Of a DNA stretch of 64,000 nucleotides, positions 5,001 through 41,100 are shown one piece after another. This stretch comes from Marsupella aquatica (taxonomy: Eukaryota > Plantae > Marchantiophyta): NCBI GenBank assembly GCA_973895155.1, contig OZ316896.1:21519643-21583642 (forward strand), written 5' to 3'. Below the pieces are notes generated by a model. It saw only the letters and a program-made list of their open reading frames with translations. It was not told the DNA's origin and did no database searches. The position numbers and the translations under genes were made by a program. Position 1 is the first letter of the stretch. The number at the start of each line of letters is the position of its first letter.

Positions 5001-6201
5001 AAACATTTATTTCAATTATTATAATATGGAATCCGGCCCAAACTCTCCAAGTGTGCTTACCAACTTGAAAGGAAGGAACAGAATCTAGCCGCCAAATGCA
5101 TTGGAGAATTGTTTTTGTCACTATTCGATCGTGTGAAGTGGAGTGCCCAAACAGGGCCTATTATCTTGGAGGAGGAGCTATTTACCATAGGCTACTAGGG
5201 AGTAAGTGGTGTGCGTGCAGATTATAAACATTATAATACACAATCCCTACCTTTTCCCTCATGGTTTGTGCACTTTTGGATGTAACTCATTTTGCTTGTT
5301 GGATTCAGATCTGCATTTTCCTAGTCATGAGATCTAGTATCATATACAATTTCAATGTATAAATTAAAGTATTATGGTACATGGATATAACTGTATCTAT
5401 TTGCTTCACCTTATTGTGTAAGAAGCCTCAACTCTAGTTATGCTACTAACACTAATTGTGTGGCACAGGGGAATTCGAATACCTCTCTAACTAGTCTAAA
5501 ACTTTGGTTTTTAGCAATAATTGCCAATGATTCAAGAAACTAAAGTGGGGATGGAGCTCCACATTGTTTATGAAGCCAAGATGGATTTGGCAAAGCTTGG
5601 ATGGACTTGCTCCCAAGATTAAATTTGAGTCAATCATATAACTTTGTTTACATTTTTGACTGAAATGTGACCTGTAAATGGTCTTCTTATTGTTTGTAGA
5701 CTGTTTCAGTTATGTTACCCAACCGGTCTCCTCGGTAGCATGGCTATTTGACGACCTTAAACATGAAAGACGTGAGGACATCATGCCATTACTAAGGAAC
5801 ACTGGTTTTCAGTTAACCCATATAAAAATTTCCAATTGTAGAGTGAAATCATGATTCACCATATTTGACCATCTCTGTGTTCATTGAAAATGGAGTGAAT
5901 GATCTAAAAAAAGAGTCAAACTTTGTCACACAATGTATTGGACATGAGAGACCATGCTGGAAATTTGTCAGCTTAAATTAGGATCCAGAAGTCCTTCAAA
6001 TAAATCAAACTATCCGCCAAATTCAAAGGTAAGGTTTGTGTGTCAAAATAGTTATCCTTTGTTGAATGTAATGTGCCATTTTTATGGAAAAGAAACCCCT
6101 AGATACTTCTCTACTTGCATTTTCTTTAAAGAGGTAAATTAAATTCAAAAGTGTAACATTTCAATGCATGCTAAAATAAATGAAAAACCTCCTCATATGA
6201 C

Positions 6202-7108
6202 AAAGCTGATTTTTTCCTCGCTACTCGGTAACCAACACTCCCAAAGCTGACAGGGCCCAATGTGATAAACTAAATCTATGTTGCTTTACATGCTATAACA
6301 AAGCTGATTTTTGCCTCCCTATTCGGTAACCAACACTCCCGAAGCTGATAGGGCCCAATGTGATCAACTAGATCTATGTTGCTTTACATGCTATAACAAA
6401 GCTGATTTTTGCCTCCCTATTCGGTAACCAACACTCCCGAAGCTGACAGGGCCCAATGTGATCAACTAGATCTATGTTGCTCTATACATGCTATAACAAA
6501 GCTGATTTTCCCCTCCCTATTCGGTAACCAACACTCCCGAAGCTGATAGACCCCAATGTGATAAACTAAATCTATGTTGCTGTACATGTTATAACAAAGC
6601 TGATTTTTGCCTCCCTATTCGGTAACCAACACTCCCGAAGCTGACAGGGCCCAATGAGATCAACTAGATCTATGTTGCTCTATACATGCTATAACAAAGC
6701 TGATTTTCCCCTCCCTATTCGGTAACCAACACTCCCGAAGCTGATAGACCCCAATGTGATAAACTAAATCTATGTTGCTCTACATGTTGTAACAAAGCTG
6801 ATTTTTGCCTCCCTATTCGGTAACCAACACTTCCGAAGCTGACAGGGCCCAATGTGATCAACTAGATCTATGTTGCTTTACATGCTATAACAAAGCTGAT
6901 TTTTGCCTCCCTATTCGGTAACCAACACTCGCGAAGCTGACAGGGCCCAATGTGATCAACTAGATCTATGTTGCTCTATACATGCTATAACAAAGCTGAT
7001 TTTCCCCTCCCTATTCGGTAACCAACACTCCCGAAGCTGACAGACCCCAATGTGATAAACTAAATCTATGTTGCTCTACATGTTATAACAAAGCTGATTT
7101 TTGCCTCC
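6202..7108. repeat. 98-100-bp tandem repeat array, left part (9 full units plus a truncated one)
   Basis: Unit aaagctgatttttgcctccctattcggtaaccaacactcccgaagctgacagggcccaatgtgatcaactagatctatgttgctttacatgctataac starts at 6202, 6300, 6398, 6498, 6596, 6696, 6794, 6892, 6992 and 7090; the last unit is cut by the transposon. Confidence 0.97.
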
Positions 7109-7290
7109 ATCACTATATTCATTAAAAGTGGAATTATAAAGAAGATTTGGAAATTTGGGCATTTAAAAACACACTTTTAGGCATAAGAATTGTAAATTTG
7201 AAGGATGAAAAATGAAAATTTAAGCATCATGAATTATAAATTTGGGGCAAAAAAATAGACATTTGGGCAAAGAAAATATTAATTTGGATA
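7109..7290 (+). repeat. Left TIR and AT-rich subterminal region with degenerate ~20-bp periodic repeats
   Basis: 25-bp TIR followed by recurring aaattt(g/a)...aaaa motifs at roughly 20-bp spacing. Confidence 0.7.
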
Positions 7291-7693
7291 ATATTAAAAA
7301 ACATTTGGGTGATAAAAAGTGTTCATTTGGTTGAAAATAGATAGAACGTGTGTAATAACACATAAGCTTGGATAGCATCTATACTCAAAACATCTAGCTT
7401 GGATAGGATCATTATCTAAGCAACAATGAAATGCTAGACAAGTTAAATATCTTATATTCAAACTAGGATGACATCCAAGTAACTTAGAACTGCCATCATT
7501 TTCTAGAAATATATGTACTAAGACAAAAATAACAATTTTTATCAAAAAGTCCATTCAATAACTAAGAAAGATCATAGAGTATTTGATTGCAAGCCTTGTT
7601 CTCTCACTTACTTTAGACAAATGCATGGAAATTAACTTGACCCTCCTACCTACAAGTCATTACATAGTGGACACTTGTGACCACTCTATCACT

Positions 7694-10600
7694 CTACTCA
7701 TCAATACCTTCCATGTAAGTTTTGAGAGTTTTCAAAACATTCTTGGGAATTGTCAAACCTCTATCCATAATATTTTGTTCTTTGGCACCTGACTTAAACC
7801 CATACATTGCAGAATTTGCAAATTGCCAACTTTGAGTGATAGTGTTAAACCCAGGATCTAGCTCCCAAGTCTTAGTGGTCTGAAAGCAACGTTCGTATCG
7901 AACATCATCCTTTGCATCATGCTTACCATGTTTAGGCCTCCACCATTGCACTTGGAACATAGGAGCACACCGCTTAGGAATGCTACTTAGGTGAATGCTC
8001 TTAGAAAACCTTGAAGAAGACCCTTCACTAAATTGCAAATCTAGTGAAGAAACCTCATGGTTTGGATCCACACCACCCAAAGCTCGAACTAACCAGAAAC
8101 GCCCTTTGCCATTTTTTTGCTCCCATTCATCCTCTGGACGTAAAAACACAAAGTGACCCTCTTGAATATCTTGTAGGGGAATCCAACGTGCAAGTTCTCG
8201 CTCTTCTTGTGCACCAACGAAGGGTGCAGCTTGACCTTCCATCTCTTCCATGTACTCATTTTGAAGGTCCATCATCTCTGAATTTTGAGTAGGTTCACTT
8301 GAAGGTTGAGAGGTCCCCAAAATCACCTTGTAACCTGTGCCATGGTTAGTCTTTGGCCAGAAATCAGTTGTCAATGACAATTGTCTTTCTCCCTCCCCTT
8401 CTATTGTAATTGCCTCAGAGAGTGCCATAACAAGCCTCTCCCAATATTTCACCAAAGGAAATCTCTCGCAGTATGCTGCAGAGGTCTCATCCTTGCAACT
8501 TTTCCTCAAGAAATCAATGTAACGATTAAGGAATGGGATGATTTCCTCGACTTTCTTTTGTACCTCCCCCGATATAGGTTTTGCAAATGGTTGGCCCTCC
8601 GGTAAAATGAGCGTGTTTGTGATGAGATCAGTTCTCCAAATTGACCTCCCTGTTGCTGGAAGCCAAGGTTGTTTGACATGTGCTTTATATTGATACACTG
8701 GCACATTATCCCTCATGGAGAATAGAAATGCCACTGGTTTTGAGTGACCTTCAATCTCTTTCACTTGGAAAGCCTTCAAATAGTGCTTGTAAGATGCAAC
8801 CTCCTGAATCAATCGTGGTACGGGATGGATGCTTTCACACTCCCAAACCTCAGCCATCAACGCAAGGAGGGTAGCAACCTCTTTGTACCTGACCTGTTTG
8901 GATACTCGAGAAAATAGTGCATCCACATCCTCATGGGTGTGGCCAACCATGAGGAATGACATTTGCATAGTTTCAAACACCCCCTGCTAACAAGCTCGCT
9001 GCAAAATGCCATCACATATTGATTTTTATTATATTTTCCTGAATTGTTCATCTGCAGTGTTAGGTGCCTTGGTAAGGGCTTGAAAGAGCTTGTAGTCTCA
9101 GGATCAACTCTAGAACCAGCATCTGTTGTGCTGGTTTTTTGGCTCTCCTGACCGTCATCAAGGCCTTGAAACTTGAGAATTGAAACATTTTTGGGTTCCA
9201 AGTAACCCGCTTGAAATGCTTCAAAGTCCAAAAGAGACTGAAATATTGGCCTAGTTGCATTCCAATTGAAAGCTTCAAGCATGTCTCCCGTTTTGTCTCC
9301 AGTGTAATCCTCCAAATCTCGAAGGCATTTGGCCAAAGATGTCACAGTGAAGTCTGCATCTCCAGGCCAAAGGCCAGTCAAACTAAAGTGTGCATACACT
9401 CCTGGATCCCTTCCATGGGTTAACATCCCAGTAAGGGCAATGGCCAGAGGTTGACCACTACCAGAGAGAGATTTTGGAGTGGGGACCAATCTGGGGATCC
9501 AAGTCTTGGCTTGGTCCATCTTATCATGAATAATGCAAAGATAGTTTTGAGGATCCTTCTTTGCAAGAACCCTATGAGCATAGTAAACATATCTCCTTGA
9601 CATTTGTTCACGAAGATGTCGTGCTCTTTTCTCTTCAATCTCTGCACGCTCTTTTTTTCTCTTCTCCCGCATCAATTGATCTTTGAACTCAGTGCAAAAT
9701 GTGCACTTGGCAAATGCACTGCCCTTGTGAAAGTCAAAATTATCAAAAGAATTTTTCCAGATGTTGTACATGGTAACTTCAGTAACCTTAGCATAGCCGT
9801 CCAATTCCATCTTTGCAAATACCTCTTGAAAAATCTCCTTCTTAGTGAAACATGATGGGAGTCGATATTCGACAGTATCGGTGCCGTTGGACCCACCATA
9901 GGGAAGATGTGGCATTGGTTCTCCATTTTGGATTAAAATGGACTCCAACAATGCACGAGCATGCAAGGTGCTTGATCGTGTCTTATGTTGCCCTTGATTT
10001 CCATGGAAACCAATTGTGCACCCAGCTTCGTACTGATTTTTGCAATCATCACACTATTCATTAAAAGTGTATTTTATTTTGTTCACTTTTAGGCCTCTAA
10101 AGATTCACTTTTTGATCTCTAAATGTACACTTTTTAAACCCAAAAGGTACACTAAGGTACAATACTCTACACCTAACTGATCAATTGTAAACTTGAGGGG
10201 GCAAAAATGATCTTGACTATAAGGAGTCTCATCCTAGTTCATTTACAAAGGATGAACATGGTGGTATATTTGATGGCCATCAACTTAATTTCTTGCCCAA
10301 TTGTACACTTTTTGAGGGCCAAATGTATACTTTCTATTGCCCAAGTGTTCATAAATTGAATAATAATTCACTTTTAATGAATAGATTGATAATCATAATA
10401 CTTTGCCGTACTAAACCCATGCATTTTTATGAACGCATCCTTACAAACCACACGTCCCTTTAGAACAAAAAATCCTTTTCTCTTGACTTGGTCTTCTCTA
10501 CACCCAAAAAGATTGAAGATATGACTTGTTTTGTTGTCACTTGACATTCCATGAAATTCCCTCCTTATTGCCTCCAAGTCCTCTCAAGTTGGCATGTTCA

Positions 10601-11778
10601 AGCAACACTTTAACCTGCAACAACCTTCTCTTTGGATGGAATCAATGGACTCCTCGGTGATTTTCAAAAGTGCCCTTGATTGCAAATGTTTTTTTTTTCT
10701 CCTCCAGATCCACTTTGGTCCTTCTAATGAAATTATAAGGTCTTTTTGGAGGTTTCCCATCACCATCCAAATCCGGGTCGCTCTCATTTCGACCCGATTC
10801 TATCCACACATGTGAACCTTTCTCAAGGATATCCCCGAGAAACATTTGAGATGAAATCAACAACAAAGATTTGATTTCCCACCTCACCAAACCTGGAGTA
10901 CCAGCACAGATATTTGGAAATAATGCGGGATCGTTGATATTCACAACAGCTACACCCACATGCTCTGGACCAAGAAGTTCATCATCAACAGCACCTGCTT
11001 CAAAAGGAACTGTGATAACCCCTATCGCAACCTTACGACAACGAGAAACATCATACAAGTCAACTTCCTCTGCCATCCAGTTGGAACGCATTGTAAAATC
11101 TTTCAATGGAAGATCCTTAAACAGGTTTGCACCCGGGTTTGCACCAACAAACATGCCAGAACCTCGAATAGAGCCTTTTCTTGAAACATCAGCAACATCC
11201 CACATTACCCAAGTCTGCATTGCCTCTTGCACTGTGTCAGCTCCAGGATGTGGATACGGTAGTTTTCTATTTCCCTGAACAACCTCTGATATTTGTATAC
11301 TGACACGGCCAACACCGAGTCGTTCACTATGACAAGTGTCCATTGGATTGGTATTGAAGACAACTCCTTTTGATACAAGTTCATCTAAAATGAACATCTC
11401 AACCTCCTCTCCTTCAGCAAGGTTGCCTCCTTTACCACCAACATCCATTTCGGAACATCCTTCATCCCCGTCCACTGGAGTAGGAACACCATCCACAGCG
11501 GTTCTTTTCGGCAATGTTGAAGACCTCAAATATGCCAAGGAAGAATCCCAGATCACACACGAGTCAACTGCATCACCTAGGCTCGATGATGTTTTGGATG
11601 GAAATGGTAGTGGACAAGATGTTTCAAGACACCTCTCGATAAGGACCCCAATTCGATTTTTCCCAAGACAAATATTGTGTATAGTGTCTTTGGGATCAAC
11701 CTTTTGGATGGTCCCAATTGCCACTTCAAAACCATCAATTATCAATGAAACTTCATCCCCTCGCATAAATTTACTCAT
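7694..11778 (-). pseudogene. Sola-like DDD transposase with three N-terminal En/Spm TNP1-like repeats (~1245 aa reconstructed)
   Basis: ORFs 10642-11778, 10584-10787, 10374-10577, 8857-9966 and 7694-8980 join into one protein. Motifs: CCRLKCC, VCKDAFIKMHGFS, HGNQG, CTFC, IIHDKMDQ, LQMNNSGKYNKN (expected LQMDNxxxxNKN), SFLMVGHTHEDVDALFS. Lesions: frameshift in the T-run 10689-10698, TGA at 10584-10586, MITE at 10048-10390, frameshift in the C-run 8980-8984, apparent catalytic D to N change. Confidence 0.85.
10048..10390. mobile_element. 343-bp non-autonomous element (MITE) of the same TIR family, nested in the transposase gene
   Basis: TIRs ATCACACTATTCATTAAAAGTG and ATCAATCTATTCATTAAAAGTG (20/22). 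TSD AATC at 10044-10047 and 10391-10394. Removal restores the frame AKYYD-CKNQYEAGCTIGFHGNQG...LHARALL. Subterminal tacacttttt-type repeats are present. Confidence 0.93.
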
Positions 11779-11956
11779 GGTAGCGAAAGGATCTCTGCAT
11801 CCAAAAACATTTAAAAATTGTTCAGCTGATGTGCATACTGATAAGCACTACTCTAGATATTACAATATTAGATCTAAACATTTGAATTCTATTTAAAGGA
11901 AAAAAATATTTGGGAGTTTATGTGTATTGGCTTTACACAACAGGATTCTAAGGTCA

Positions 11957-12387
11957 GGGACGCTCTTGGAGCGAGGCAAGGTTGCGACGCTCTAGGGGCG
12001 AGGCGATTGAGGGACGCTCTAGGGGCGAGGCGATGGAGGGTCGCTCTAGGGGTGAGGCAATGGAGGGTCGCTCTAGGGGCGAGGAGATGGAGGGTCGCTC
12101 TAGAGGCGAGGCGATGGAGGGACGCTCTAGGGGCAAGGTGAATGAGGGTCGCTCTAGGGGCGAGGCGATGGAGAGACACTCTAGGGGCAAGGTGAATGAG
12201 GGCCACTCTAGGGGCTAGGCGATGGAGGGTCGCTCTAGGGGCGAGGCGGTTGTGGGACGCTCTGATGGCGAGAAAATGGAGAGCGGATGCCCTTGGAGAA
12301 AAGAAAGGGCAGGATGCTCCTGATGAAAGGTAAGTGTGTGACGCTCTTGGAGCGAGGCAAGGGCATGACGCTCTTGGAGCGAGGCAA
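11957..12387. repeat. 27-bp minisatellite built on an imperfect palindrome, upstream of the transposase ATG (probable 5' intron)
   Basis: Unit gggtcgctctaggggcgaggcgatgga, about 11-12 copies at 11957-12270 plus two more near 12340 and 12367. A minus-strand acceptor tgcag lies just upstream of ATG 11778. Confidence 0.92.
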
Positions 12388-13109
12388 CGGGAGAGCAAGA
12401 AAAGATGAGCACAATCCTGGAGAAGCAAGAATTGTGAAGGAAAAGAGAAAATATGGAAATGAATAAATCAGGGGAATGATTAAGCTGAATTAGACCATTG
12501 AAGTGTGTAGACGTGTGGGTAGACGAGTGTGTCGTTAGGAACCCTACATTATCTAGGGCTTAGTTAGGTCCATATATTAAGATAAAGCTAGGGCCAAATA
12601 TTTGGTGGATATCATAGAGAAGAAATTAAGAGAATGGTAGATGAAGTAATACCTCTCTTAAGGACTATAGAAGACGTGTCGCCAACCAAGGACACCAAAA
12701 CTAATGCAATATACTTGAAACAGGACTTTCCTTGCACGAACTCTTGTAACCATAAATGTCCAAGTCAGTCGAATCAGTCACCGAACAGAAGCAAGATAGA
12801 CAAGGGCCGAAGGGCGAGACCGAGAGTGAGCAATGACCAGAAACGCACGCGCCATACAAAAGAGAGAAATGATTGGAACTGTAGAGCTTTATACCATTTG
12901 TGAGCAAGCTTTAGCCAAGTTTGTCCTGAAGGGGTTCACAACATCGAGAGGCCGAAAGTCTGATTACTCTGATCGGCATTCTGTGGACACCCGTACGACC
13001 GTGCATCATTTTTCAAAATCTATGGATACCCGTACAGCTAGGTCATTATGAGGGTTGCGAGTTCACAGGCGCGTGGAAGGGAGCAAGTGGCTGGGTTGCG
13101 TAAGGTCGG

Positions 13110-13160
13110 GTACGATCGGCCGTGGCGTACGATCGGCCGTGGCGTAGGATCGGCCGTGGC
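13110..13160. repeat. 17-bp tandem repeat (x3) in the divergent promoter region of the transposon
   Basis: gtacgatcggccgtggc repeated three times, one with a variant base. Confidence 0.9.
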
Positions 13161-13447
13161 AGTGAGGGTATAGGAAGGCAAAAGGCAAAGACATTACCTC
13201 ATTTGCCTCATTGTCTTCTTGCATCCATCTCCTCCTTCATTGTCTTCTTGCCTGGCTGCCCTGGTTTCCCTCCTCCCTCTTGCCTCGCTCATAGTAGATT
13301 TTCTTGCCTCGCTCTGTTGATTTTTCCTTGCTCATAGTAGATTTGTTTCCTTGCTCTGTAGCCTCGCTCCGTGGTGTGGTCTAGCTATAGGTGTTCTTGT
13401 ATACTAGGCTGCCACGTGTCATCTAAACGTTTGTGAGGCATTTTTCA

Positions 13448-16400
13448 ATGGCTACTTCCTCTAGTTCTGATGATTCTACTAGCACTTCTAGTTCTGGGTA
13501 GTCCCTAAACTTTGATTCTAGTAAAATCTTTGAGTATGATTCTCAAGACACTTTACTAAAGATGTCGGTGGAATCCACTTTGGCCGCCTCAAGGGGATTT
13601 CATATCACAGTTCCACGTAAGTATGATTCAACAATTGATGCAAGTTAGTCTTTGAAGGGTCACTCTTAGAGCGACCTTATCTTGCCTAAGATCTGTCGTT
13701 GTTATTGGTTGGATGTTGATTTAAGTTTTCCTAGGGTCGCTCCAGGAGCGACCCAACTTTGTTGTTGGTTGGACGTTGATTTAAGTTTTCCTAGGGTCGC
13801 TCCACGAGCGACCCAACTTTGTTGTTGGTTGGACCTTGATTTAAGTTTTCCTAGGGTCGCTCTTGGAGCGACCCAACTTATTTGTCGGTTGGACCTTGAT
13901 TTAAGTTTTCCTAGGGTCGCTCCAGGAGCGACCCAAATTTGTTGTTGGTTGGACCTTGATTTAAGTTTTCCTAGGGTCGCTCTAGGGGCGAGGCAACACA
14001 GAAGATCTCTTGCTTTAATGTTTGTCGTTTCAATTTGTTTTTCTAGGAGAACAACTTGGATCCCTAGAGTTAAATATTATGGCCGAGGATGTCAAGGACT
14101 TTATTTTCCCTGGACAAGATAAGGCAGGATTTTTGTGGGCACTTGAAGTAGGGATCATGGAGAATGACTTGTCGATGATTTGTATCAAGGCAATCACTGC
14201 TGAGACAATGAACGACAAGAAGATAGTTGCGTTGGGCCCTGTGGTCCTTGTAAATTGCAGTGATAACCGCAATGTTACAATCATTATTGAATCCAGAGAA
14301 AGATCTCAGTGGATGAGACTTTACTTGCCAATCAAGATGTACTCGTCAATTATCAACGTGGAGTGGATAGCACGCTCGGAGGCTAGTATTTGTTCAATGG
14401 GATTTCTTCCAGATGGGTTCACTGCAGAGGATCTTCTTGAGAGGCATGGAAGATTCAAATTGAGTGGGGTTGATGTTGTCTTTGGATTCCTCTCTGTGAA
14501 GCGGTACATGCATGATCATCCGGACCTTATAGATCTTCCTAACACATGGGTTGTCCAGAGGATGATTGAAACAGCACGCTTTTCATATGAGCAAGCAATT
14601 GATAAGAGTTTTATTTTCTCTGATGAGTTTGACGAAGATGCTTGCATGAAGTGGATTTCAACTCAAAAGAAGAAGGAAGAAAAGCATCGAGGTAAGGCGA
14701 AGATGAAGATGAAGGCCAAAGAAATGACGTCGGCTGAAACACAGAAGAAGAGAAAACAAAGAGAGCCAAGGAGTGAAGGAAGTACTAGAGGAAAAAAGGC
14801 GGCGTTGAAGAAGAAAGATAAGGACTCCGACAAGAAGCCCAAGAAGAAGGCCAAGATTGGAAAATCAAAGCCCGTGTCAGCGTCAAAAGCAAGGTTGGTC
14901 TTGGATCCGGAGGATGATACATGCCCAACAGATGCACCAGAGGAACGAGATGTATTGGAGGGGCAGAAAGCTTTGCGGAACATCGAGCAATACTACACTT
15001 TTGGAATCAGGGAGGTTTTTGAAATCCCGGTTAAAAGTATTCTTCCGCCTACTGCAGTTTTTGTGTATCGGATGTTCAACCAGGCTCATGCCTTAGAGAT
15101 AGCAAAATCAATGATGAAAAACCCTGGCCAGGAACCACATGTTGCAGATTTGATTCCATTTCTAGAGCGCACTAAGCAGTTGTTACATTTTGACAATACC
15201 GCATGCGATCGGAAGCAATTTTTGTTTGGTGTTAAGAAGCAAGAGATACAATTTCTTGCAATCAGTGGGCAACATTCTGCAAAGGCTGCACAATGGATTC
15301 AAGGGTGGGCAGACAAGGATGCCAAGCTAACTGATCTTGCTAGCAAACTCCAATATCTGAAAGCGAGGATCTTATCAGACCTCACTCCAAGGGCAATTTT
15401 GGTCGAGCACTCGAGCCTTTCAAATGCAGTAAATCAGACCATGCAGTTTAAGTCTTGTTTTCTAGAGACAGTTGTTCATGCGAGAAGGCAATTTGATGAA
15501 TGTGGGAAACCACCGCGTCCAGGAATTGGAACAAACCAAAGTACAGACAACCAGAGATACCAGGTAAACATTTTCATTAGTTGGAACTGTAGTTTAATTT
15601 TGCCTCGCTCTTAGAGCGACCCAAATGAAATTGAATGATGAATACAATGATTGCCCCAACCATTTTCATATGGCTTTGTCATTTTCTTCGCCTCGCTCTA
15701 GGGGCGAGGCAGAGAAGTTGAAGTTTCTAAGTTTAAACATCTAACATGTTTTTTGGTGGATGAATGTAAATGCAGGATTGGTTTGCCCTCGCAAAGATAA
15801 CAATGGGAAAGTCGAGCTTGAAAGCCATTTTTTGGTTGCTCTTTGCTGAGGATAAGCTTTTCCATTTGTGGCAAACTGTTTGTTGGGATTGGTTGGCAGG
15901 GAAGCTCCCTGGCGGGGCAGGAGAGTATGGTGGGCCGTGGCCACTAAAGCTGGTCACGCCAACTCTTTTTAGATGTTTTGAAGGGGAGATCAGTTCTAAG
16001 GATATCATTGATATATTGACCGCGGTTTATGAGAAGAAAGCACTTCTCAAGAAAGATGCCTCCAACAAGATGGATCTGGTGTCAATGCCAAATATGGCTC
16101 ATACCATCAAGGTAATGACTAAATTGAAGCAAGTCATTGTTGAGTACTTTGTTGAGAAGCACAAGGAGAAGTTTCCCGGGGGGACATCGTGGGCTTCGGT
16201 GGTCAACATCATGCCGGCCTTGGGATCTCAACTTGAGCTGACAAAATTGCGAAGAGCAGCTGGGGAGGTCTACCTTAGCAGTTTATTAAGGAAGAACATT
16301 GTGAAAGAGGCTTTCCCTCAAAGTCTAATGGTGAGATTAGACGGGTTGTACTACAAACAATTTGGTGGAGTTGGGCGCACACGAACAGAGCCTTTCTTGA

Positions 16401-19400
16401 CGTTCTTCAGTGAGAATCTAATGAAGACAACCACGCCAGACTTATTGGAAGAGGCGACGCCAATGTGTCCACTTGCAATTGTTGATTTTAGTAGGGCACG
16501 ACAACATGAATGGACAGATTCGGAAATTTTTGTATTGCTCCAATATATTGTGGAGTTGCCAAGGAATACAACCATTGTAGTTGTCATGACTACTCATCCA
16601 GGGCCACTTCCAGCCAACATCTTAAGTGCCCTAAGGAAATTAGGACATGAAAAGCATTTGGCCATCCATGTTGAATACGGGAGTTATGATCGGGAAGATC
16701 GCCCAAATCCGCAGGGCTTAATTTTTACAGGAGCGATTGAGCAGGTCATTTTTGCTGGAATTACAGGTGAAGACAATTTTGATTGGAATCAATTGTTTAA
16801 GCCAGAGTTCAATTCAAAATTTAGTTTTCACCCCGATGTTGACTGTGATTTCAATATTGAAGTGAAGGCTGACAAGCAAGAGAAAAGCAAGGGAAAAGAG
16901 AATGAGACAGAGGAGCAGTCTCCCGCATTTGATATGGCAGATTTATTGCGGCAAGCTCCAATGTTTGAGATGGTCGAAAGTCGAGGAGGATTTGTCAATC
17001 CGCATGCCAAGCCCTGACACATGCTCAAAAATATTATTGAATGTTTTTCCGGTGAGGGGGAGACTGTCCTCGATTTTTTTTCAGGAGGGCAGGTTTTGAA
17101 GGTGGCCTTGTTGGCATACCGAGATTGTTTTGTCTATTCAGACACTTTGCAAGAACACCATTTCACCCAAGCATATGCAAGGGTTTTGTGCAACAGGATT
17201 CCCTCCCTTATGAAAGAGCGAATGGGAGTACATGGTCCTAGGAGAGCTCATCTAAGTGTTCTTTGCGGGCCTATGGACAACCCCCAACCGGGCCCTCAGC
17301 GAGTTGACCTTGAGGATGGTGAGTTGCAGCATGATGATGGAGGTTCAAGTCCTATGGTAGAGGAGGATTTTGGCGGAAATTGGGATGCTCGAGCAACAGA
17401 AATGGTTGGCATTACTACCTACGGTGTTGAAGGGCTACCTCAACTCGACATAGTGATGTCGGGTCGCCCTGAGAGCGACCCTCCATCAAATCCTCTCAAC
17501 CCTGAAGTATCAAAATTGCATCCCGAGAGACCGCAGGTATCGTGCACATTGGATGCAGGTTGGCAGAATATTGGGGCCACTACACCCACCACGGACCTAC
17601 AAGTTGGTATTGCAGAAGCGATTGAAGACAACCTTCCACTTGGAGAGACAACAAATGTTGAAGCTGAAGAGGCAGGTGCTTCAACTTGTTCCGAGTCTCC
17701 TCAATTATGTTCGTCAGGGAATAAATTGGTCTTCACAAGGATGTCAAGCGGAAGCCCCATAATATTACGCTTGTCTCAAAAGTCTGGATCTGAGATAGGT
17801 AGAACAAGATATATGAAGACAGTCCGTCATGCAACTCATTTCATTTGGAGAAATGGACCTAAAGTTGGATTGAAAGAAACGTTGGAGGATGCGCCTAAGT
17901 TAATGGTCAAACCTCATTACATAATAGACAAATTGAGATTGAGTCCAGTGTTTGCGCCGGCAACGTTGGTGGAGCAGCTTCCTGTTGGCGTCAATTTTGA
18001 TATCCAAAGTGATCTAGGTGATAAAATGATAGATGAATATGGGTCATTTAGTAGTGGAGGTTAATATTATGGTTTAGTTCTTCTATTTTTCACAATAATC
18101 TAAAATATTATGTTTGGAAATCATATATGGACAGACCAAAGTTTTGTCATAGCATCTCTTCCATCGAAGGATATTATTGGTCTACCTTCAGCAAGCGGTA
18201 CCCTGGTCCAAGACAAAGCATTTGAGCAAGGTACTTCTACATTGATATATCAAAATGCTTTGACATTCAAAAATGATATGTTTGTTTTCCCCATTAGGTC
18301 GGGTCGATCCAGGTTCGACCCTAAGTTCTTCTTTTATATCTTTTAGATATAATTTTGATTCATTTGGATCTTTGCAGATTTCACTCCTAAATTGCACTCT
18401 GATATAAGAAGAAAACTCTTGATTTTGGACCTGAACAAAATTTGTTGGGATTGCGTCAAAACAAAAAGCTCGGGACCGTTAAGATCTACAACAACTGTGC
18501 GGGGTGTGCATTGGGGGAGACGGGGTGGATTCAATTTCATGTACGTGGAAAGGCCAGGGTTGCACCAATTTTTGGAGGTGGCTTTCAAAGGTTTTGATGT
18601 CGCATTGTGGACTTGTGCGGGGAGGCCAAGAACTAATGAAATGATGAATTTGATTTTCAAAGAAGAGGAGCGGAGGCAATTTAAATTTGTTTTCACACAA
18701 GAAGATGCTTTTGATACTGGCATAAAAAGACCGGACGTAGCAGATGGGAAAGGAAATATTATGTTGAAGGATTTGCTTGTGGTGTGGAGTCGTTTTGGAG
18801 ACAAGTATGATGATACAAACACTCTACTTATTGATGACTCTCCAGTGAAGGCTTTTGCAAATCCACAGTATAGTGGTTTGTTCCCAACTCCCTTCTCACA
18901 CGTTGCTGAGAGTGACACTTTTCTACCAGAGATACTTTGGCCATTCCTTAGAAAATTGTGGAAGGCTTATGACATCCGACAATATATATCTGTCAACAAT
19001 CCACTTTGGTCATTTGTTAATATAAATGATGACCGTGAAAGTAATGCTGCAATCACTTTCCCATAAGTGGGGAAGTAAGATTTGGCGTTCCAAGATTGAG
19101 TATACCATCTTGGATGTCACTGGAGATGAGATATGTTGGGAAGTGAGGGATATGGTACAATCCTACCCTACATTTGAGAACCTGACCGAAGATGATATGA
19201 AAGATGTGGTCAACAACTGTTTGGGCGAGTCTTATGCAGGTCCCTTCAGAGAAAATCCTCGCCGATTTGTCTGGGAAGTTCTAAAGACTAGGGATCTCAC
19301 CTCTAAGTTTAAAAACCGTTATCCCAAAGACACTTGCACTCGTGACAGACTATATGACCCAAATGGAGAGCGACTCACTTGTTCAAATCAGTCATGTAGA

Positions 19401-19442
19401 CATATTCATGGAGGCATAGAATTTGAAATTTTAGATGATTAA
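13448..19442 (+). pseudogene. Transposon cargo gene, 5 exons (13448-13616, 14047-15563, 15776-18059, 18135-18230, 18378-19442), ~1700 aa: Lys-rich region, ParB/Srx-like, N4/N6 DNA methyltransferase-like and FCP1/NIF phosphatase-like domains
   Basis: All four GT-AG introns join in phase (1,0,1,1). ParB-like motifs: EIPVKSI..VYRMFN..AKSMMKNPG..FLAISGQHSAKAA. MTase-like motifs: NPHAKP*HMLKNIIECFSGEGETVLDFFSGG..ALLAYRDC. NIF-like motifs: LLILDLN, ERPGLHQFL, VALWTCA, KDL, NTLLIDDSP. Lesions: TAG at 13499-13501, TGA at 17015-17017, +1 frameshift at ~19026-19063. Confidence 0.78.
13705..13995. repeat. 60-bp tandem repeat (~5 copies) in intron 1 of the cargo gene, each copy carrying the 21-bp palindrome
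   Basis: Unit ttggttggaccttgatttaagttttcctaGGGTCGCTCcagGAGCGACCCaactttgttg with an exact 60-bp period. Confidence 0.95.
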
Positions 19443-19729
19443 TCATTATGTTTGTGTACATTGTAGGACACAAGATTGGAGTCATGCAATCATTTTTCTA
19501 TTTCACAGGTCATAGAACTACTTTGGACTTTACACTAGCTTGACCATTGGAGTAGGATCGACATTATGGCTAGCCAACCTTGAATATATGTTATGATAAA
19601 TGAGATGATTAATCTCACTTTGAATTTAATCATGAGTTTTTACCAAATGATACATGTTTGTCACTTATCTATTTAATTTCAAATACAATTAATATTAATA
19701 ATTTCTGTATTATGATTAATTGATTAAAA

Positions 19730-19896
19730 TCAAATTTGGAGTGCAAAAGTGTAATTTTAAACCAAAAAGAGTGTATATTTAGTCTTGAAAAATTGTTTAT
19801 TTGGAGCAAAATTAATGGACTTTTTAGAGACAAGAATGTAAATTTGAGGATCACAATCTGGACTTTTAAATTTCCAGTTTTAATGAATACTGTGAT
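19730..19896 (-). repeat. Right subterminal region with degenerate ~20-bp periodic repeats and the right TIR
   Basis: Recurring aaaa(g/t)tgt..ttt motifs; TIR at 19872-19896. Confidence 0.7.
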
Positions 19897-20567
19897 CTCC
19901 CTATTGGGTAACCAACACTTCCGAAGCTGACAGGGCCCAATGTGATCAACTAGATCTATGTTGCTTTACATGCTATAACAAAGCTGATTTTTGCCTCCCT
20001 ATTCGGTAACCAACACTCGCGAAGCTGACAGGGCCCAATGTGATCAACTAGATCTATGTTGCTCTATACATGCTATAACAAAGCTGATTTTCCCCTCCCT
20101 ATTCGGTAACCAACACTCCCGAAGCTGACAGACCCCAATGTGATAAACTAAATCTATGTTGCTCTACATGTTATAACAAACAAGCTGATTTTTGCCTCCC
20201 TATTCGGTAACCAACACTCCCGAAGCTGACAGGGCCCAATGTGATCAACTAGATCTATGTTGCTCTACATGCTATAATAAAGCTGATTTTTGCCTCCCTA
20301 TTTGGTAACCAACACTCCCGAAGCTTACAGGGCCCAATGTGATAAACCAGATCTATGTTGCTCTACATGCTATAACAAAGTTGATTTTTGCCTCTCTATT
20401 CGGTAACCAAGACTCCCGAAGCTGACAGGGCCCAATGTGATCAACTAGATCTATGTTGCTCTACATGCTATAACAAAGCTGATTTTTGCCTCCCTATTTG
20501 GTAACCAACACTCCCGAAGCTTACAGGGCCCAATGCGATAAACTAGATCTATGTTGCTCTACATGCT
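19897..20567. repeat. 98-100-bp tandem repeat array, right part (~7 units)
   Basis: Same unit as 6202-7108, resuming at ctccctatt immediately after the right TIR. Confidence 0.97.
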
Positions 20568-31000: not shown

Positions 31001-34000
31001 ATTCTAGCTAACAGGGTCTGTGTCTAGGTGTGAAGCTTGCTTACGGGTGACAGAAAATCTAGCCAAAAGCTGCAAATACTATTTAGAGAGGTAGAATCTA
31101 GTCTGCCACATTTTTTTTGGTTGGGTGAGCAAGTGGAATCTACTGTAGTGATCCTGCCTTTTCTTTTATTTGTAAGCAGAAGTCCCCCATTTCTGAAAAA
31201 AGATTGTTTATTAAGGTGTTTGATTGCAAACGAAAGTTATTTAAGAAGTGTGAATGATGACTAAGTTCTGGGTAGTAAAAAAATTCCAGGCTAGCAAACA
31301 CCCAGAGGACTCCTGGTCAATAGCATGGCAGAAGGAGTCACATTAACAGGCTCCATGTCCTTGGGGCCCCTTCTCCCAATTCCAGATGAGCATTCTTTGA
31401 AAACTCATTTTATTGCTTACTTCAGGTCCTGCTTTTAATGTTGCCCATTATCACATATTGCTGGATGCACACAGAAAGTTAAAACATAAGGGTGTATGTG
31501 GTACTCTGAATGCTACCTAAGCCCGTACCTAAGGAGTGCAGATCAACACAAGTGCAGTGTTTACTCGAGACTAGTCATACCAAAAACCATAGTCCAGTGG
31601 TAGCAAATCTTCATTGCCACAAATGAAGCCCAGAGTTCAAGCTGCATAGCTAAATCAACTCTGGCACAAACCAAGGCACAAACCGTCATCCAAAAGTGGG
31701 ATTCACCAAAGTTCTTTGCACATAATATACTTGACACTTGAGAAAATTGGAATTAAGTTTAAAAGTCTGGATGGATTGAGGGGTTTGCCCATTCCCATGG
31801 ACTGTGACATACGCTCCTTCACATTACAATTAAAATTCACACTGTCAGGCTGTCTTTGGAAGTAAGTTTCACTTTTGAGAAGGAAGCCATGAGTAGTGTT
31901 TCTAGGTGTCCCCACCAACTGTGATGATGGTTTTAATAGACTTATTTACTTATTTGGACAACTATTTAAGTTCAATTTTTTTAGCATGTTCTCTTATGTA
32001 CAACCTATTATCAGGCAAAGTTTTAGATTTTTCTTAAATGATTGTTTCATTGCCAATGAGTGTAAAAATGGTCAGTTCGTTCACTTTTGTGAAGGATGCC
32101 CGGGAGGACACCCTGAGTAGTTGGTACATGAGTCGTGACTTGCCACCGCGTAGCCAATGGAAACCATCTGTGAACGGTCAGGAGCCTATTATTGAGCTAC
32201 ACTTCAGTCCAAATGGTAACGAGTACTATCCAAGCCTTTTGGATGGTGTGAATCAGTCCATCCCAGCTTTGGAAATGGGGGTTTCATAGCAAACCCCCTC
32301 AGTCCTTCCAAGATCACTTTCTTATATTAAATCTATCACCTAAAAGAAGATGAGTTCAATTAGACAACATTCAAGGGATTAGTATAAATTCAATGAGGGC
32401 ACATTCAACGCGTTTACTTTACTGAGTCACGATAAACTGGAGCTTTATCTTTACCACAATGTAAGTTTATACTCATACAGGCACAATCGAATCAAATCTC
32501 CCATTCAGAGCTCTTCTCGGGTTGGAGACTAGCTGACTCAGGAACAGCTTACTTTATAAGGTTTTTCAAAATTTTGTGTTACCTTCAGTGAAGAAGTAGA
32601 TACTAAGAATATTCTTTATCTAATTGTTTTGGATTACTTTCAGATCCTCAGATCTCCCTAGATAGAAGGATGACTGTTAGATACTGACTTACTAGTGGGG
32701 TCTTTGGCTAGGTCTGTGGCTAGGTGAGAAATTGTCTAACGGAACACAGAAATTCAATTTAATTTCTTCCAAAACTGGCAAGCAGTTTTTCGAGAGATTC
32801 TAGCAAAGGTTTGCCAAAAGGCTAAGACTTTTTAGAAAGGTGGAATCTAGCCAATTCTCCTGACTACAAAAATGCCTGCTCATGATCTCATCTTTGTTCG
32901 CTATCACTCCATTTCTTAAGGCAGGCCAGTCCCATCTTTCGGAGTAAAACTAGAAGAGATCGTCACCACGTAGGGGAATGTCATTATAATTACGTAGTCT
33001 GTGAGTGAGGTTTGGAAAGTAGGGCACCACGTAGGGAAATGTCATCATATTCATGTACAGGAGTCATCTCGTTCAGACTTGGATTCCTTCATTGCTTGAG
33101 TAAGAACCTTGTTAGTTGTGTGGACACTAACGCTTTTGAATTATCTGCAGTATGTAGGTCCAATATGTGTTTACATTCGGGGATGCCCATTGAATGCACG
33201 AAGTGTCCTCCCACATGTAACTCGACCATAAGCCAATGATGATTGAAATCTATTTCTCGGGCTATGATGAGCTTTCTACAACAAGTCTGGATGCTCACTT
33301 GTTAGATTGATGCCCCAGTAAACCTACGCTCCTACAGTAAAGCTCATCATATGGGTGTGCATAGTTCTGCTAGAGGAACTTCAAGCAAATTGCTACAAGT
33401 TACTAACGAAATACTGAATGGGCACCTAAGTTATATTCTGGATACCCACATGCTAGGATGGGTGTTATAATAGAAATGTGATTCTATTAAACCAGCATAT
33501 GGTAAAGCACAAAATGGCACATGCTTATGGATCTCCGGGACCTCTAAAATACTAACTTCATTGGGTCCACACTCCACAAACACTCAACCATACCCTTCAC
33601 ACATCTGCATGCATATTTTCTGGGAGGACTTAGGAGTACCTTCACCCGAGTCAAAAACCGAGACAACAGAACCCAAGAATTCCTTTTTCAGTCCGTTTCT
33701 TTTTGTTAAGGGTGCTGTGAATTCAATTAAGGAATGGTAAGGGATATTTGTGCTTTGATAACTCCAAATATGAACATTCCATTGGTAAAACACTTCTAAC
33801 CTTACCAGCTAATGAGCTCCCAGGAATTCAATCCTATCCGGACCATTGAATTTTTTAGTGGCAAAGATTTGCCAAATTCTACCTGATGAATAATTTTCGC
33901 TCTTTTTGCTTCAAATTTGGCCGGTCTTTGTCTTAGGCTAGTCAATTTGCACCTAGTCATAAATCCCATAGACTGGAATTTGATCGGCATTAATAGCTAT

Positions 34001-37610: not shown

Positions 37611-38155
37611 GGATTTCCTGCGGACTACCGTTGGACGTAAAGAGGTGTAGCCAAGGGAAGGTCTTGATTCTTTCTACAGCGGTCAGAGCAGTCAAGCTAT
37701 AAACTCCCCAAGTAGCCAGCCTTGGTTGCGTAATGGGTGCGCACTCCGGTTCTGATTGTCAATAAAGCACCTGTTTATTTTCTACTCAATGCGAATGATG
37801 AGCGACAACAAGAACAACAGCAAGCGGATAGCGTATGGTGTCCTGGTCAATTAGAATTGTTGCCTAGGAAGTCGGATACGAGAAGGAGGAGGAGACGATT
37901 TGCATCTGAAGGTTTTTCCTTTCGTGTGAATAATAGGAATCACTACTTGTGGAGAGGATTATGGTCTTCAGATTTCTGCAAGGAAAAAGCTAAGCGAGAG
38001 AGAGATAAAAGGGAGGAGAGAATTGGTAAGGCGGATTGTGTGCTAATCAGACATCTCGTAGGAAAACCATAGACGACGAAGGGGGAGAAAACTGAGAGAG
38101 GATTTGAGCTTGAGAGCAGATGATGGACGCGTAACGAGCGCAGAACATTCATGGT

Positions 38156-41100
38156 ATGGCGACGTTGCTGATGAGACCGGGGGATGGTGGGAGTGGGGAC
38201 AAGAAGCGCCGAGCGCGGAAGGGCAAGAATGCGCAGAAAAAGCAGCCGCAACGAGGGCTGGGAGTGGCGCAGCTGGAGAAGCTGCGTCTACAAGAGCAGA
38301 GCCTCCTCTGCCCGACTCCGCCGTCGTATACTTTGCGCCTCTCCGCAACGGATTCGGATCACCACATGGCCCGGTGCGACACCGATGCTTTGTCGCAGAC
38401 TGTCCTCTCGTTGACCACTTCGAATGTGCATGGCCAAGCAGGCGGAGGGGGCTCCACCAGCAGCGTGGTGCGTGGTGCGGAAGGGGGCACCTTGTCGCGC
38501 CTAAGTTCCTTGAATGGACACTCCGCCGCCCAGAGCTGCTTGTCTCCACATCTAGCTCATGATATGAGCAAGTGCAACGTCGCTGAAGCCTTTCATGCTG
38601 CTGCCAAGGTTGCCGTGGCATCCAGGTCCTTAGCATGTCTGAGTCAGACCTCCAAATTCTCGTCCGTCAATGCTTCGTTCTTCTCGAATATGTTGACCGC
38701 CACTCAACTGCAGATACTTGAAAGCCAGGCTCAGGCTCAGCAAAAAGTGGCGGAAGAATGGAGGACAGCTGCTGCGACTGGGGTCGTAGAGCACTCTGGA
38801 AATCCTGCTCCCGCGTTCGTCTACCCTTCGGGCACCAATCACCTCAAAGAAGCTCCAGCAAATCATGTCAACAATGAAGACCTTAAGCTCCACCCGCTGT
38901 TCAAAGATCATGTACAATCCAGCGCCCTCTTAACTTCCGCTGATTTGCACTGCCTTGAATCACTGATCTGATCAGACGAGTCCCTTGTTCTAAGACCGCA
39001 TCGAGTCCATTTATCTTGTGGTTGTTCTAATACTTTTCTATGCACGCTGCTGTTCTCGACAATCATCTTCAATTGAAGTGTCTAGCCACGGCAGCTGGTT
39101 CAAACCAATTGCGTGCTCTTCTCTTCATGATCAATTGCGAATATTGATCTGGTCCGTTGTTCTAATTAGGATATTAGTCAGTCTTCTTTTGGTCAAAATC
39201 TCGTCAGCGTGCCAGTAAGTGAATGTCTTCACCAACTTATTTGTTGAATCATGAGGATTGGGCACACACCACGGAAGTACAACGCACTCGTAATATATAT
39301 CGTATTGCATCTGGTTTAGGTCGTCGCACCCACAAACATCGTGAGAACGAACTCAGCAAAGGAGCTCTCTTCTTTCCAAAACTATGCAAGTCAACAAGCA
39401 TGGCCACCGGTAGAGAAGGTAAGATCCGAATTCTCCTGTAGGCACAGAAATCACCGGAATCTGATGAGTTTGTCGAGTCAGACCTTGTCGATTCTTTTAC
39501 GCCAACCCTGCTCTTTGGTCGTCCGTGGGAGTCATATCAGTCAAATGGATGCTCGTCTCCGGGGATACCGTCAGGCTGCTTCTAGATTGGATGCCAAGAT
39601 CATATATCCAATTTGTTTGGAAGAATTTTCCATTGAATGCGTTTTAGGCAGAACATCCAGTGGGGTGGAAGACTGAAGAGGCTAGGCTTGCTCGTATGCC
39701 GTCTGGACGCCAAACACCTAGGCAGAAATTTCATGCCTTGCCCAGTCCTCGAGTTCATGACTTGGGAACTGAGATTGATTACCGTAGCGTGAGTACAGCG
39801 TTCTTGTGACTCATTTGTGTGACACGGTTGTACTCATTGTGAGTGGATTGTTCAGAGTTTTTAATATAGACTGCTTTAGATAAAGGCTGCAGAGCGATTT
39901 ATACGCGTCTTCTCAAGTCGTTTCCCCTTTCATCGTATAGCGTCAAGATTCTGACTCTACTGGCAATTTGGTACATGAATGGTACGGCTGGACGGTGGGT
40001 AGGTAGCGGGAAGGAAACGGCCATGGCTTGCTCTGCAAGAGAGTTCGAGGCACGGTTGTTACGCGCAGGCTTTAGACCTAAACGCTCCTTTCGAGGAAAC
40101 CGATGCTGCCTTCAGCGAACGCAGACCAGTCGGACGACCCAACCAAGTTCCTGAGTTTCGAGTCGGAACACACTACACAACCGGCATTGTTCGGTAATCA
40201 CGAATCACATCCTATTCCGTCTATTCCAATTTCTGCATGTTTGCCACGTCGCCGTCGCTCACTTAACAATAATTAATAAATCTAGCCATAAGTTTTCTGA
40301 GGAACCGTAACCTCCTGAATTCGGTGTGCAACGATAGTACTTACTATTGAATGATGGCCGATGTAGCACATCCATATATGATAATATTTAAAATCCGCGA
40401 TCAGGCCCACGAGATGCGCAGTAGGAGCAGTTTTGTAACTTCACCAGAGATATGATACTTGTTTAAAGATTGCCTGAAGATTGCCTACATTGATGTGGCC
40501 CTTTGACTCTCTAATCTCTAATTGATTGATTGATGTGCAGAACTGCGCTCGGTAATTCATCTCTTCCTCCCATTGCGAAGATCAAGGTGTGGTCGTCGGG
40601 GTCACACTGGCAAGACAATGAGAGTCCGTCGCATGTCACTGCGTATTTCCCTGAAATGGGGGTGTGCGCAGAGAATGCGGTAGGCTTCAGACAGTGCCCA
40701 AGCCAGTCTTCGATCAAAGATAGCTGCTCGAGCGTCACGGGTCCGAGCAGCTATTTCTCTCGTAATCGGCAGACTTCCCTCAAAGATCCTGACCACACCC
40801 CTTCCCCAGTCGTTGAGAAGGAATCAATTTGTAGTAATTTCCTCACCCTGGGCATATCGAGCTCGTCCTACCCGGATCGCAAGGGGTGGACCGAGCCTGA
40901 AGAAAGCATTCAGGACAACACCCCGACGAGCATCATGAACGATATCAACAGATTGAAGCAGCACGAGACGACCACCACAAGCGGGTGTTGTGAAGCTGAT
41001 AATCATTGTTCGCAGGTTCGGATTCCACAGGTTCGGATTTCCATCTGTACGCAGGTAAAGAGTTCTTGCTGCGCGCAGCTGGATTACAATTTCCTTTTCT

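Follow-up and report, generated by a model that had tools for sequence, protein, structure and literature searches.

The locus discussed here raises the question of which protein, if any, reads a 21-bp sequence that has been amplified within one transposon of the liverwort Marsupella aquatica. The window, by which we mean the whole stretch of 64,000 nucleotides that was analysed (assembly GCA_973895155.1, contig OZ316896.1, positions 21,519,643 to 21,583,642), contains 25 copies of this site within a transposon with terminal inverted repeats (TIRs) and none in the other 51 kb. The transposon carries two divergent genes, which encode a transposase and a large cargo protein with a predicted ParB-like fold. 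We propose that the 21-bp repeats are parS-like docking sites for this ParB-fold protein, enabling a family-specific self-recognition; the binding is inferred, and we assign this reading a probability of about 0.68. The reading is preferred because of the ParB/Noc fold of the cargo protein, the independent arms of the site and its persistence in other spacers and, apparently, in distant relatives.

A 21-bp site confined to one transposon within the window

The site has a 9-3-9 architecture and can be written as G(GG/CC)TCGC(T/C)C-N3-G(A/G)GCGA(CCC/GGC). The copies and related half-sites are distributed as follows, with all coordinates referring to the window.

10775-10795: degenerate site in the coding linker of the transposase, encoding G-R-N-E-S-D-P on the minus strand, found with a weight matrix
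11957-12385, plus strand: 27-bp array of 12 units (11957-12274) and two further units (12338, 12365), asymmetric, upstream of the transposase start
13282, 13306 and 13361 (span to 13369), plus strand: three GCCTCGCTC half-sites in a pyrimidine-rich stretch before the cargo start
13657-13994, plus strand: single site at 13657 and the 60-bp array, in the inferred cargo intron 1
13734, 13794, 13854 and 13914: perfect sites of the 60-bp array, followed by an asymmetric one at 13974
15602-15622 and 15690-15710, plus strand: two sites in cargo intron 2
17461-17481, plus strand: in-frame site in the acidic linker of the cargo protein, encoding G-R-P-E-S-D-P
18301-18321, plus strand: degenerate site in the inferred cargo intron 4

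Upstream of the start of the transposase gene there are 14 sites. In the cargo gene, the inferred intron 1 contains six, intron 2 two and intron 4 one, while the transposase linker and the acidic linker of the cargo protein hold one each. The repeat finder TRF reports a period of 27 at 11956-12263 and of 60 at 13699-13991, and the two arrays flank the divergent promoter region of the transposase and cargo genes. In the middle of this region, at 13110-13160, there is also a 17-bp repeat in three copies with CGATCG/CGGCCG palindromes, which differs between subfamilies.

Several scans of the window agree on the confinement of the site to the element. A search for the core CGCTC-N3-G[AG]GCG gave 16 exact matches and 21 with one mismatch, all of them in 7111-19894. 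For the full 21-mer pattern with up to two mismatches, 18 matches were found, compared with a mean of 0.01 (maximum 1) in 100 dinucleotide shuffles. Moreover, when scored with a symmetric weight matrix, 25 positions in the element surpass every position outside, and GCCTCGCTC occurs eight times, always within the element. A matrix trained on the 60-bp array alone recovers 24 of the 25 sites and one trained on the 27-bp array alone recovers all 25; both find the held-out sites at 10775-10795 and 18301-18321. An earlier note on this sequence had described the motif as the shared core of both arrays, which is borne out by the fact that the matrix from either array finds the other. It had counted more than 20 sites, of which the two degenerate ones just mentioned were not listed, had placed the half-sites at about 13281, 13306 and 13361, and had seen no copy beyond the TIRs, which holds for the rest of the 64-kb window.

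In viral contigs, neither the motif nor relatives of the cargo protein and the transposase were found (0 matches in each case). Prokaryotic genomes contain 65 single motif matches, which were taken as chance, as a ParB or cargo profile lies within 2.5 kb of none of the 65 and a second loose copy accompanies only two of them. Acidimicrobiia are over-represented among these 65 loci, and one locus (L020) has three loose copies, probably representing an unrelated bacterial repeat.

The designation as a palindrome, made in the earlier note, has to be qualified: perfect symmetry over 9/9 positions is seen in only four of the 25 sites, and the 27-bp units are asymmetric with two to six of nine positions being symmetric. 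The outer arms occur in all four combinations (GGG/CCC, GCC/GGC, GGG/GGC and GCC/CCC), two of which would mismatch in a hairpin. Conservation in the 60-bp array is lowest at the 3 bp in the centre of the site (0.73 versus 0.97 for the arms). The independent variation of the arms and the variable centre suggest, by analogy with known operator architecture, that a dimer may read two half-sites in double-stranded DNA. Furthermore, 43 of 50 CpGs have been retained in the sites, and the CpG observed/expected ratio in the rest of the element is 0.47.

Between their sites, the two arrays have unrelated spacers (6 bp in the 27-bp array and 39 bp in the 60-bp array), so that the site alone is common to both. 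The claim that the arrays were amplified independently stands for the amplification itself and has to be modified for the origin of the seeds: the last site of the 60-bp array, at 13974, is identical to the 27-bp units at 12146 and 12227 over 21 of 21 bases, from which it follows that both arrays go back to copies of a single sequence, which were afterwards multiplied independently. Of the copies outside the arrays, only 17461 and the newly found site at 10775 are in coding sequence; those at 13657, 15602 and 15690 fall into inferred introns.

The cargo gene encodes a protein with a predicted ParB fold

The cargo gene can be modelled with five exons that are in frame over 13448-19054. The intron limits were set by GT-AG borders and reading frame and, in the case of intron 2, also by the contiguous homologues P0012 and P0095.

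13448-13643, plus strand: exon 1 (inferred from GT-AG and frame), interrupted by a stop at codon 18 in the window copy, whereas C is read at 13499 in others
13644-14046: intron 1 (inferred)
14047-15563, plus strand: exon 2, encoding an unnamed N-terminal domain, a Lys-rich linker and the ParB/Noc-fold domain (about 14949-15563)
15564-15775: intron 2, defined by GT-AG, frame and the homologues P0012 and P0095
15776-18059, plus strand: exon 3, encoding a helical domain, a beta-class amino-methyltransferase fold, the acidic linker and a small conserved domain, with a stop at 17015-17017 in this copy
18378-19442, plus strand: last exon (inferred), encoding a NIF/FCP1-like HAD domain (Pfam NIF, E 3.4e-16) and a Cys/His-rich tail

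The inferred protein of about 1,700 amino acids thus unites a ParB fold, a methyltransferase-like domain and a NIF domain in one gene. The window copy has an 8-base gap at about 19054, and other copies carry these 8 bases. Homologues of exon 2 form 93 clusters at 50% identity.

The assignment of the ParB fold relies on the C-terminal 205 residues of exon 2, which were modelled with a pLDDT of 94.5. Foldseek ranks Noc, ParB and the sulfiredoxin Srx at the top (best Noc E 6.6e-4), and a comparison with VIA gave Z-scores of 7.5-7.7 to PadC, ParB-N and KorB (PadC: Z 7.7, root-mean-square deviation (rmsd) 3.1, 98 aligned residues). The Atlas model of the homologue P0073 also retrieves ParB clusters. 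The most conserved residues, R41 (45 of 48 rows), N159 (54 of 56 rows) and, among 57 rows, G107 (54), Q108 (53), H109 (57) and S110 (53), align to the nucleotide pocket of ParB. According to its Atlas features, P0073 is nearest to clusters of the fungal DUF3723 family (score 0.94; family annotated on 17-51% of the members), a lead that DUF3723 could be the fungal counterpart of the ParB-like cargo. Searches of PDB sequences with the ParB profile and with the transposase returned nothing useful, and no ParA-like ATPase was found by Pfam among the open reading frames (ORFs) of the element.

In the predicted model, the methyltransferase-like domain has the beta-class fold with its motif order, as judged by Z-scores of 17.4 to CcrM (rmsd 3.6, 215 aligned residues) and 15.5 to M.PvuII. 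The motif D-F/L-F-S-G-G on the side of S-adenosylmethionine (SAM) is present in all 14 rows that cover it. Active beta-class N4C/N6A methyltransferases have a catalytic (D/S/N)PP(Y/F) motif. At this position, the 13 close homologues covering it have D-F-S/T/G/A-R/Q or D-L-x-R and never a PPY-type motif, and an acidic residue beyond the next strand is not conserved either. Since none of these homologues has the catalytic motif, it is doubtful that the cargo protein writes N4-methylcytosine (4mC) or N6-methyladenine (6mA). Likewise, the HAD domain has D-L-N-K-I in place of DxDxT. When phages were searched by tblastn with P0012 and P0095, nothing beyond short matches to methyltransferases was obtained (best E 3e-3).

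Traces of the site in subfamilies and relatives

Further variants of the site are found in related copies. In a contig of run X2, which represents a close subfamily, the segment 13854-13877 is repeated with 26 unrelated letters in between, resulting in a 50-bp unit, and loose contig ends of the runs X2 and X3 contain additional site variants in new contexts. The homologues with a named source all belong to two liverworts, Calypogeia fissa and Riccia sorocarpa. For distant relatives, from Calypogeia and from unnamed sources, the comparison was made at the protein level: their sequences were back-translated and matched to the symmetric site with all 64 inner triplets. The 134 fetched proteins yielded 10 matches, compared with 0-3 in 25 shuffles, nine of them compatible with the inner triplet AGA and one with ATA. 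After removal of 27 redundant or unrelated rows, 107 non-redundant proteins remained, and AGA gave four matches at four non-homologous positions, while no triplet exceeded two in 600 shuffles.

The four positions are the transposase linker (aligned with the site at 10775), the acidic linker, the first linker of P0006 and the read-through of intron 2 in P0006; all except the first linker of P0006 correspond to sites in the window. In the acidic linker, the match lies 135-141 residues behind the SAM motif (130 for the window site), and the intron-2 read-through is followed by a looser second match, just as intron 2 of the window contains two sites. The AGA-compatible proteins are 42-48% identical to those of the window. 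One pair, the transposase P0119 and the cargo protein P0095, derives from a single Calypogeia contig with accession numbers that are seven apart. Apparently, the architecture and the position of the site are old and the inner triplet is lineage-specific, with CTC here and AGA in the relatives.

Proposed mechanism and its weak points

If the 21-bp repeats are indeed docking sites, a dimer of the cargo protein would read the two 9-bp half-sites at a spacing of 3 bp, probably via the helical domain behind the ParB fold. A nucleotide at the conserved R/SGQHS/N pocket could then allow the protein to load at the sites and to spread from them. The methyltransferase-like and phosphatase-like domains, both lacking the usual catalytic residues, may act as binding or blocking modules and not as writers. 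In this way, self-recognition would keep the divergent promoters of the element usable against host silencing, or it would regulate them. The inner triplet would drift together with the protein between lineages (CTC, AGA), and if copies with more sites were favoured, tandem amplification would occur repeatedly in different spacers. As to the purpose, an anti-silencing role following the logic of VANC, in which both promoters stay usable despite host silencing, is plausible at somewhat less than even odds. That the sites serve the regulation of the two promoters, including autoregulation, is unlikely enough to come second. The full version of the model, a domesticated liverwort ParB/parS pair in which a nucleotide-gated sliding clamp spreads along the element and delivers chromatin modules against silencing, with site and protein co-evolving (CTC, AGA, ATA), has to be regarded as tentative, with the odds clearly against it as a whole.

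Several observations weigh against the docking-site reading. The data presented here do not separate anti-silencing from repression. The VIA Z-scores below 8 are middling according to the tool's own note. The ParB GxxR arginine patch serves cytidine triphosphate (CTP), and at the position of the arginine pair most of the 57 rows have S-G-Q-H-S, compared with G-E-R-R in bacterial ParB; this replacement by Q-H-S suggests that CTP clamping may not apply. For the helical domain after the ParB fold, a comparison of its profile with the ParB helix-turn-helix (HTH) was colinear but not significant, with an E-value of 0.19 close to that of a reversed control (0.27), in a test in which even the known-homologous N-domain reached no better than 0.0016, and an Atlas feature search with this domain gave only scores below 0.9. 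In the 27-bp array, the gap in conservation between arms (0.90) and linker (0.81) is small. The AGA variant rests on back-translated protein and not on DNA, and the matches come only from P0006, the P0095 group, the P0115 group and P0118, the rest of the homologues having none. Moreover, one of 63 control cores gave five matches, all in the single conserved SGQHS motif. Finally, the metagenome relatives L001 (46% identity) and L002 (38%), the two short loci obtained from a single metagenome scan, have no site in 1.6 and 1.2 kb, respectively, intron 2 of L001 included; a 12-bp palindrome in the L001 intron agrees with chance expectation (8 such palindromes versus 5.0 in shuffles).

Alternative explanations for the repeats

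The transposase is the other candidate for a protein that reads the sites. Its gene and the miniature inverted-repeat transposable element (MITE) inserted into it are arranged as follows.

7694-11778, minus strand: transposase gene (DUF7869, Pfam E 1.3e-21), broken by the MITE insertion and by frameshifts at about 10689 and 8979
10048-10390: MITE of 343 bp with the termini of the element and a 4-bp AATC duplication, inside the transposase gene and without a site

The frameshifts are visible as indels relative to contigs of other copies, and a MITE-free joint (10045>10393 with four shared letters) is present in contigs of three runs. The transposase has three TNP1-like repeats at its N-terminus, followed by the DUF7869 region. 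Transposase_23 is present in the Calypogeia homologues P0115 and P0119, which have TNP1-type repeats, and the N-terminal part of the window transposase itself gave no Pfam match over the TNP1-like region. A G-H-T-H-E-D motif resembles Sola-type transposases. In the runs X1, X3 and X4, the summed contig depth over 7700-10400 in the transposase exceeds that over the cargo gene by several-fold to 30-fold, which suggests that many related elements carry a different cargo or none. A contig of run X3 skips 6.4 kb (13126-19556); such a deletion derivative would lose the cargo gene and keep the 27-bp array.

Binding by the TNP1-like repeats or another DNA-binding region of the transposase would resemble TnpA and Mutator transposases, which bind and activate cognate copies. 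The three repeats and the site within the transposase gene would fit this view, and transposases can act as sequence-specific activators, as stated in one study (10.64898/2026.08.24.746577). However, the TnpA motifs described there lie at the ends, are not palindromic and are recognised through tandem HTH motifs, whereas here the outermost sites lie 3666 and 1575 bp from the element ends, none being closer than 1.5 kb, and a scan of the 343-bp MITE, which has been mobilised, revealed zero sites. From the distance to the ends and from the MITE it can be inferred that the sites are not needed in cis for movement. We therefore consider the transposase an improbable reader. The earlier note had left open whether the cargo protein or the TNP1-like domains recognise the sites; the cargo protein with its ParB/Noc fold emerges as the stronger candidate, and the option of a TnpA-like reader is weakened.

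Slightly less probable still is the view that the cargo protein is an active N4C/N6A methyltransferase, guided by its ParB fold, for which the palindromes would be loading points in setting a protective self-mark. The fold similarity to CcrM and M.PvuII and the SAM-side motif in 14 of 14 rows are in line with this view, and a self-methylation role has been proposed for an Ectocarpus protein (PMC12477816). Yet the 13 close rows without a PPY-type motif differ from the host methyltransferase MpDN4MT1, which has TSPPY, and the unconserved acidic residue points in the same direction.

Neutral repeat dynamics, in which slippage and short templated copying start from a GC-rich palindrome with no protein reader, offer a very improbable account. 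Tandem arrays arise readily in the non-coding DNA of transposons, the sites at 12146, 12227 and 13974 are the same 21-mer down to the centre and indicate copying, and both the CpG decay in several units (7 of 50) and the lack of a site in L001 and L002 would be expected. However, nothing but the 21-mer has been kept in the solo copies, whose flanks are unrelated; in addition, two coding linkers retain sites in frame, and sites apparently persist at 42-48% protein identity with both arms changed together. Least likely are hairpins in RNA or single-stranded DNA, acting as splicing, small-RNA or transcript signals: strong folding is predicted for perfect sites (z -4.6 at 13729, -3.9 at 15685), and introns hold most of these sites, but the commonest, asymmetric form yields no hairpin on the inferred transcribed strand (z -0.8 at 13969, -1.6 at 12222 on the minus strand) and the outer arm variants are non-compensatory.

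The element, its ends and its surroundings

The borders of the element were defined by the TIRs together with a 4-bp target duplication.

7109-19896: transposon with TIRs, 12,788 bp, Sola-like
7109-7140, plus strand: left TIR with the terminus ATCAC, preceded by the CTCC duplication at 7105-7108; the inverted pair has 32 nucleotides and 84% identity
19865-19896, minus strand: right TIR, followed by the second CTCC copy at 19897-19900
6196-7108 and 19897-20567: 98-bp satellite, split by the insertion of the element, as judged by repeat finding and the flanks

The termini thus read ATCAC...GTGAT within inverted repeats of 32 nucleotides, and a contig of run X1 starts exactly at 7109, the left end of the element. 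The satellite comprises about 16 units with 90% identity that alternate between 98 and 100 bp in a higher-order pattern. Between 63 and 73% of the sampled words are present in four of seven listed sequencing runs, which carry two organism labels, and the long contigs of run X1 diverge from each other by less than 2%. No RNA run holding the sequence was among the seven, which is not evidence on expression. Judged from such near-identical contigs, with depth not being a copy number, the family appears to have spread recently and to be multi-copy. The copy in the window is dead, owing to the MITE and the frameshifts in the transposase gene and to the stops at codons 18 and 985 and the frameshift at about 19054 in the cargo gene.

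CACTA/EnSpm elements have target duplications of 2-3 bp, CACT termini and subterminal motifs. Membership in this group was rejected for the window element, which has a 4-bp duplication, ATCAC termini and sites distant from the ends; a CACTA element with a 2-bp duplication was rejected as well since restoration of the target at both insertions needs 4 bp. The parallel to TnpA of En/Spm drawn in the earlier note is weakened, the element being Sola-like by its duplication and TnpA motifs being terminal. A 4-bp duplication in combination with TIRs, as found for Sola1-1_Ec32, is present in both cases, reading CTCC around the element and AATC around the MITE; this length fits Sola1 and not En/Spm and makes the element Sola-like. 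Neither of the two sequences, which are the only two insertion sites, agrees with the AWWT target preference of Sola1 (PMC3845634).

Elsewhere in the window, two pairs of distant inverted matches (5588-5802 with 60303-60509 and 32608-32682 with 60042-60116; 73-84%) are probably old dispersed repeats. In a CpG-rich region at 37-45 kb, a host ORF (38135-38971, plus strand) contains K-Q-P-Q-R-G-L-G-V-A-Q-L-E-K-L-R and has a weak Pfam match to NOZZLE (E 0.23); we take it to resemble SPOROCYTELESS/SPEAR proteins.

Relation to known systems and implications

The general layout has precedents in algal transposons. In red-algal Plavaka elements of the EnSpm type, tandem inverted repeats adjoin the ParB-like gene PAG3, and self-binding has been proposed as an untested idea (Petroll et al. 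2025, 10.1101/2025.02.11.637652). As in the window element, a ParB-like accessory gene is thus accompanied by adjacent inverted-repeat arrays. However, ParB of Plavaka is fused to a 2-oxoglutarate (2OG) oxygenase and the methylase is separate (PAG2), whereas the liverwort element has the ParB fold, the methyltransferase-like domain and NIF in one inferred gene, a 4-bp duplication and a land-plant host. Its sites also lie in introns and coding linkers, and the inner triplet is apparently lineage-specific.

Sola1-1_Ec32 of Ectocarpus is a giant DNA transposon with a gene for a ParB-like and N4C/N6A methyltransferase protein opposite the transposase (Dinatale et al. 2025, PMC12477816). It shares with the window element the domain pair, the opposite strands and the 4-bp duplication; it differs in its TIR of 282 bp (here 32 bp), its AACCG termini (here ATCAC) and its protein of 1104 amino acids (here about 1,700, inferred, with an additional NIF/HAD domain). 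The examined text and supplement rows of this source report no palindromic sites and do not discuss the catalytic state.

Bacterial ParB/parS, Noc/NBS and KorB operators resemble the window system in the ParB fold, the repeated palindromic sites and the conserved pocket residues; the window system differs in that no ParA-like gene was seen in the element, the GxxR arginines are replaced, the helical domain has no significant match to the ParB HTH, the site has a 9-3-9 form and the gene is eukaryotic with introns. Analogues of the proposed system that have been tested experimentally are VANC and TnpA. VANC proteins, which induce demethylation, have motifs of 8-9 bp in non-coding tandem repeats of VANDAL elements (Hosaka et al. 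2017, PMC5735166). Both systems have a short motif in family-specific non-coding tandem repeats that differs between related families, and an adjacent accessory gene. However, VANDAL elements are Mutator-like, while the window transposase belongs to DUF7869 and the cargo domains are of the ParB, methyltransferase and NIF types; the term 'palindrom' is absent from Hosaka et al. (2017, PMC5735166), and Pfam scans of the cargo gave no VANC-like match. In Marchantia, the host 4mC methyltransferase MpDN4MT1 keeps TSPPY (10.1101/2021.02.12.428880); the cargo protein likewise comes from a liverwort and has the beta-class amino-methyltransferase fold, yet it lacks TSPPY, is fused to ParB and resides on a transposon. 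Adenine methylases fused to ParB-HTH have been described from chlorophytes and chytrids (Iyer et al.). In the literature on ParB on eukaryotic transposons, only the algal cases and no land-plant case were found, most subscription papers being outside the search. The general layout has already been published for algal transposons; new within the literature searched are its occurrence in a land plant, the fusion of the domains and an apparent co-variation of the site.

The link between ParB-like genes and inverted-repeat arrays in algae has so far been an untested suggestion. The element described here offers a defined site and belongs to a family that apparently amplified recently and should yield an intact gene. 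The difference between CTC in this element and AGA in Calypogeia-type elements is a sharp prediction of specificity and makes self-recognition directly testable in a plant group that has a genetic model in Marchantia. Should the clamp mechanism be preserved, it would explain how a single protein acts along a whole element, an open question raised for VANC, and the clamp could be a programmable load-and-spread tool for plant chromatin. A domesticated ParB/parS pair, if true, would add to VANC/TnpA a second system by which land-plant elements escape silencing in a sequence-specific manner, and one of independent origin.

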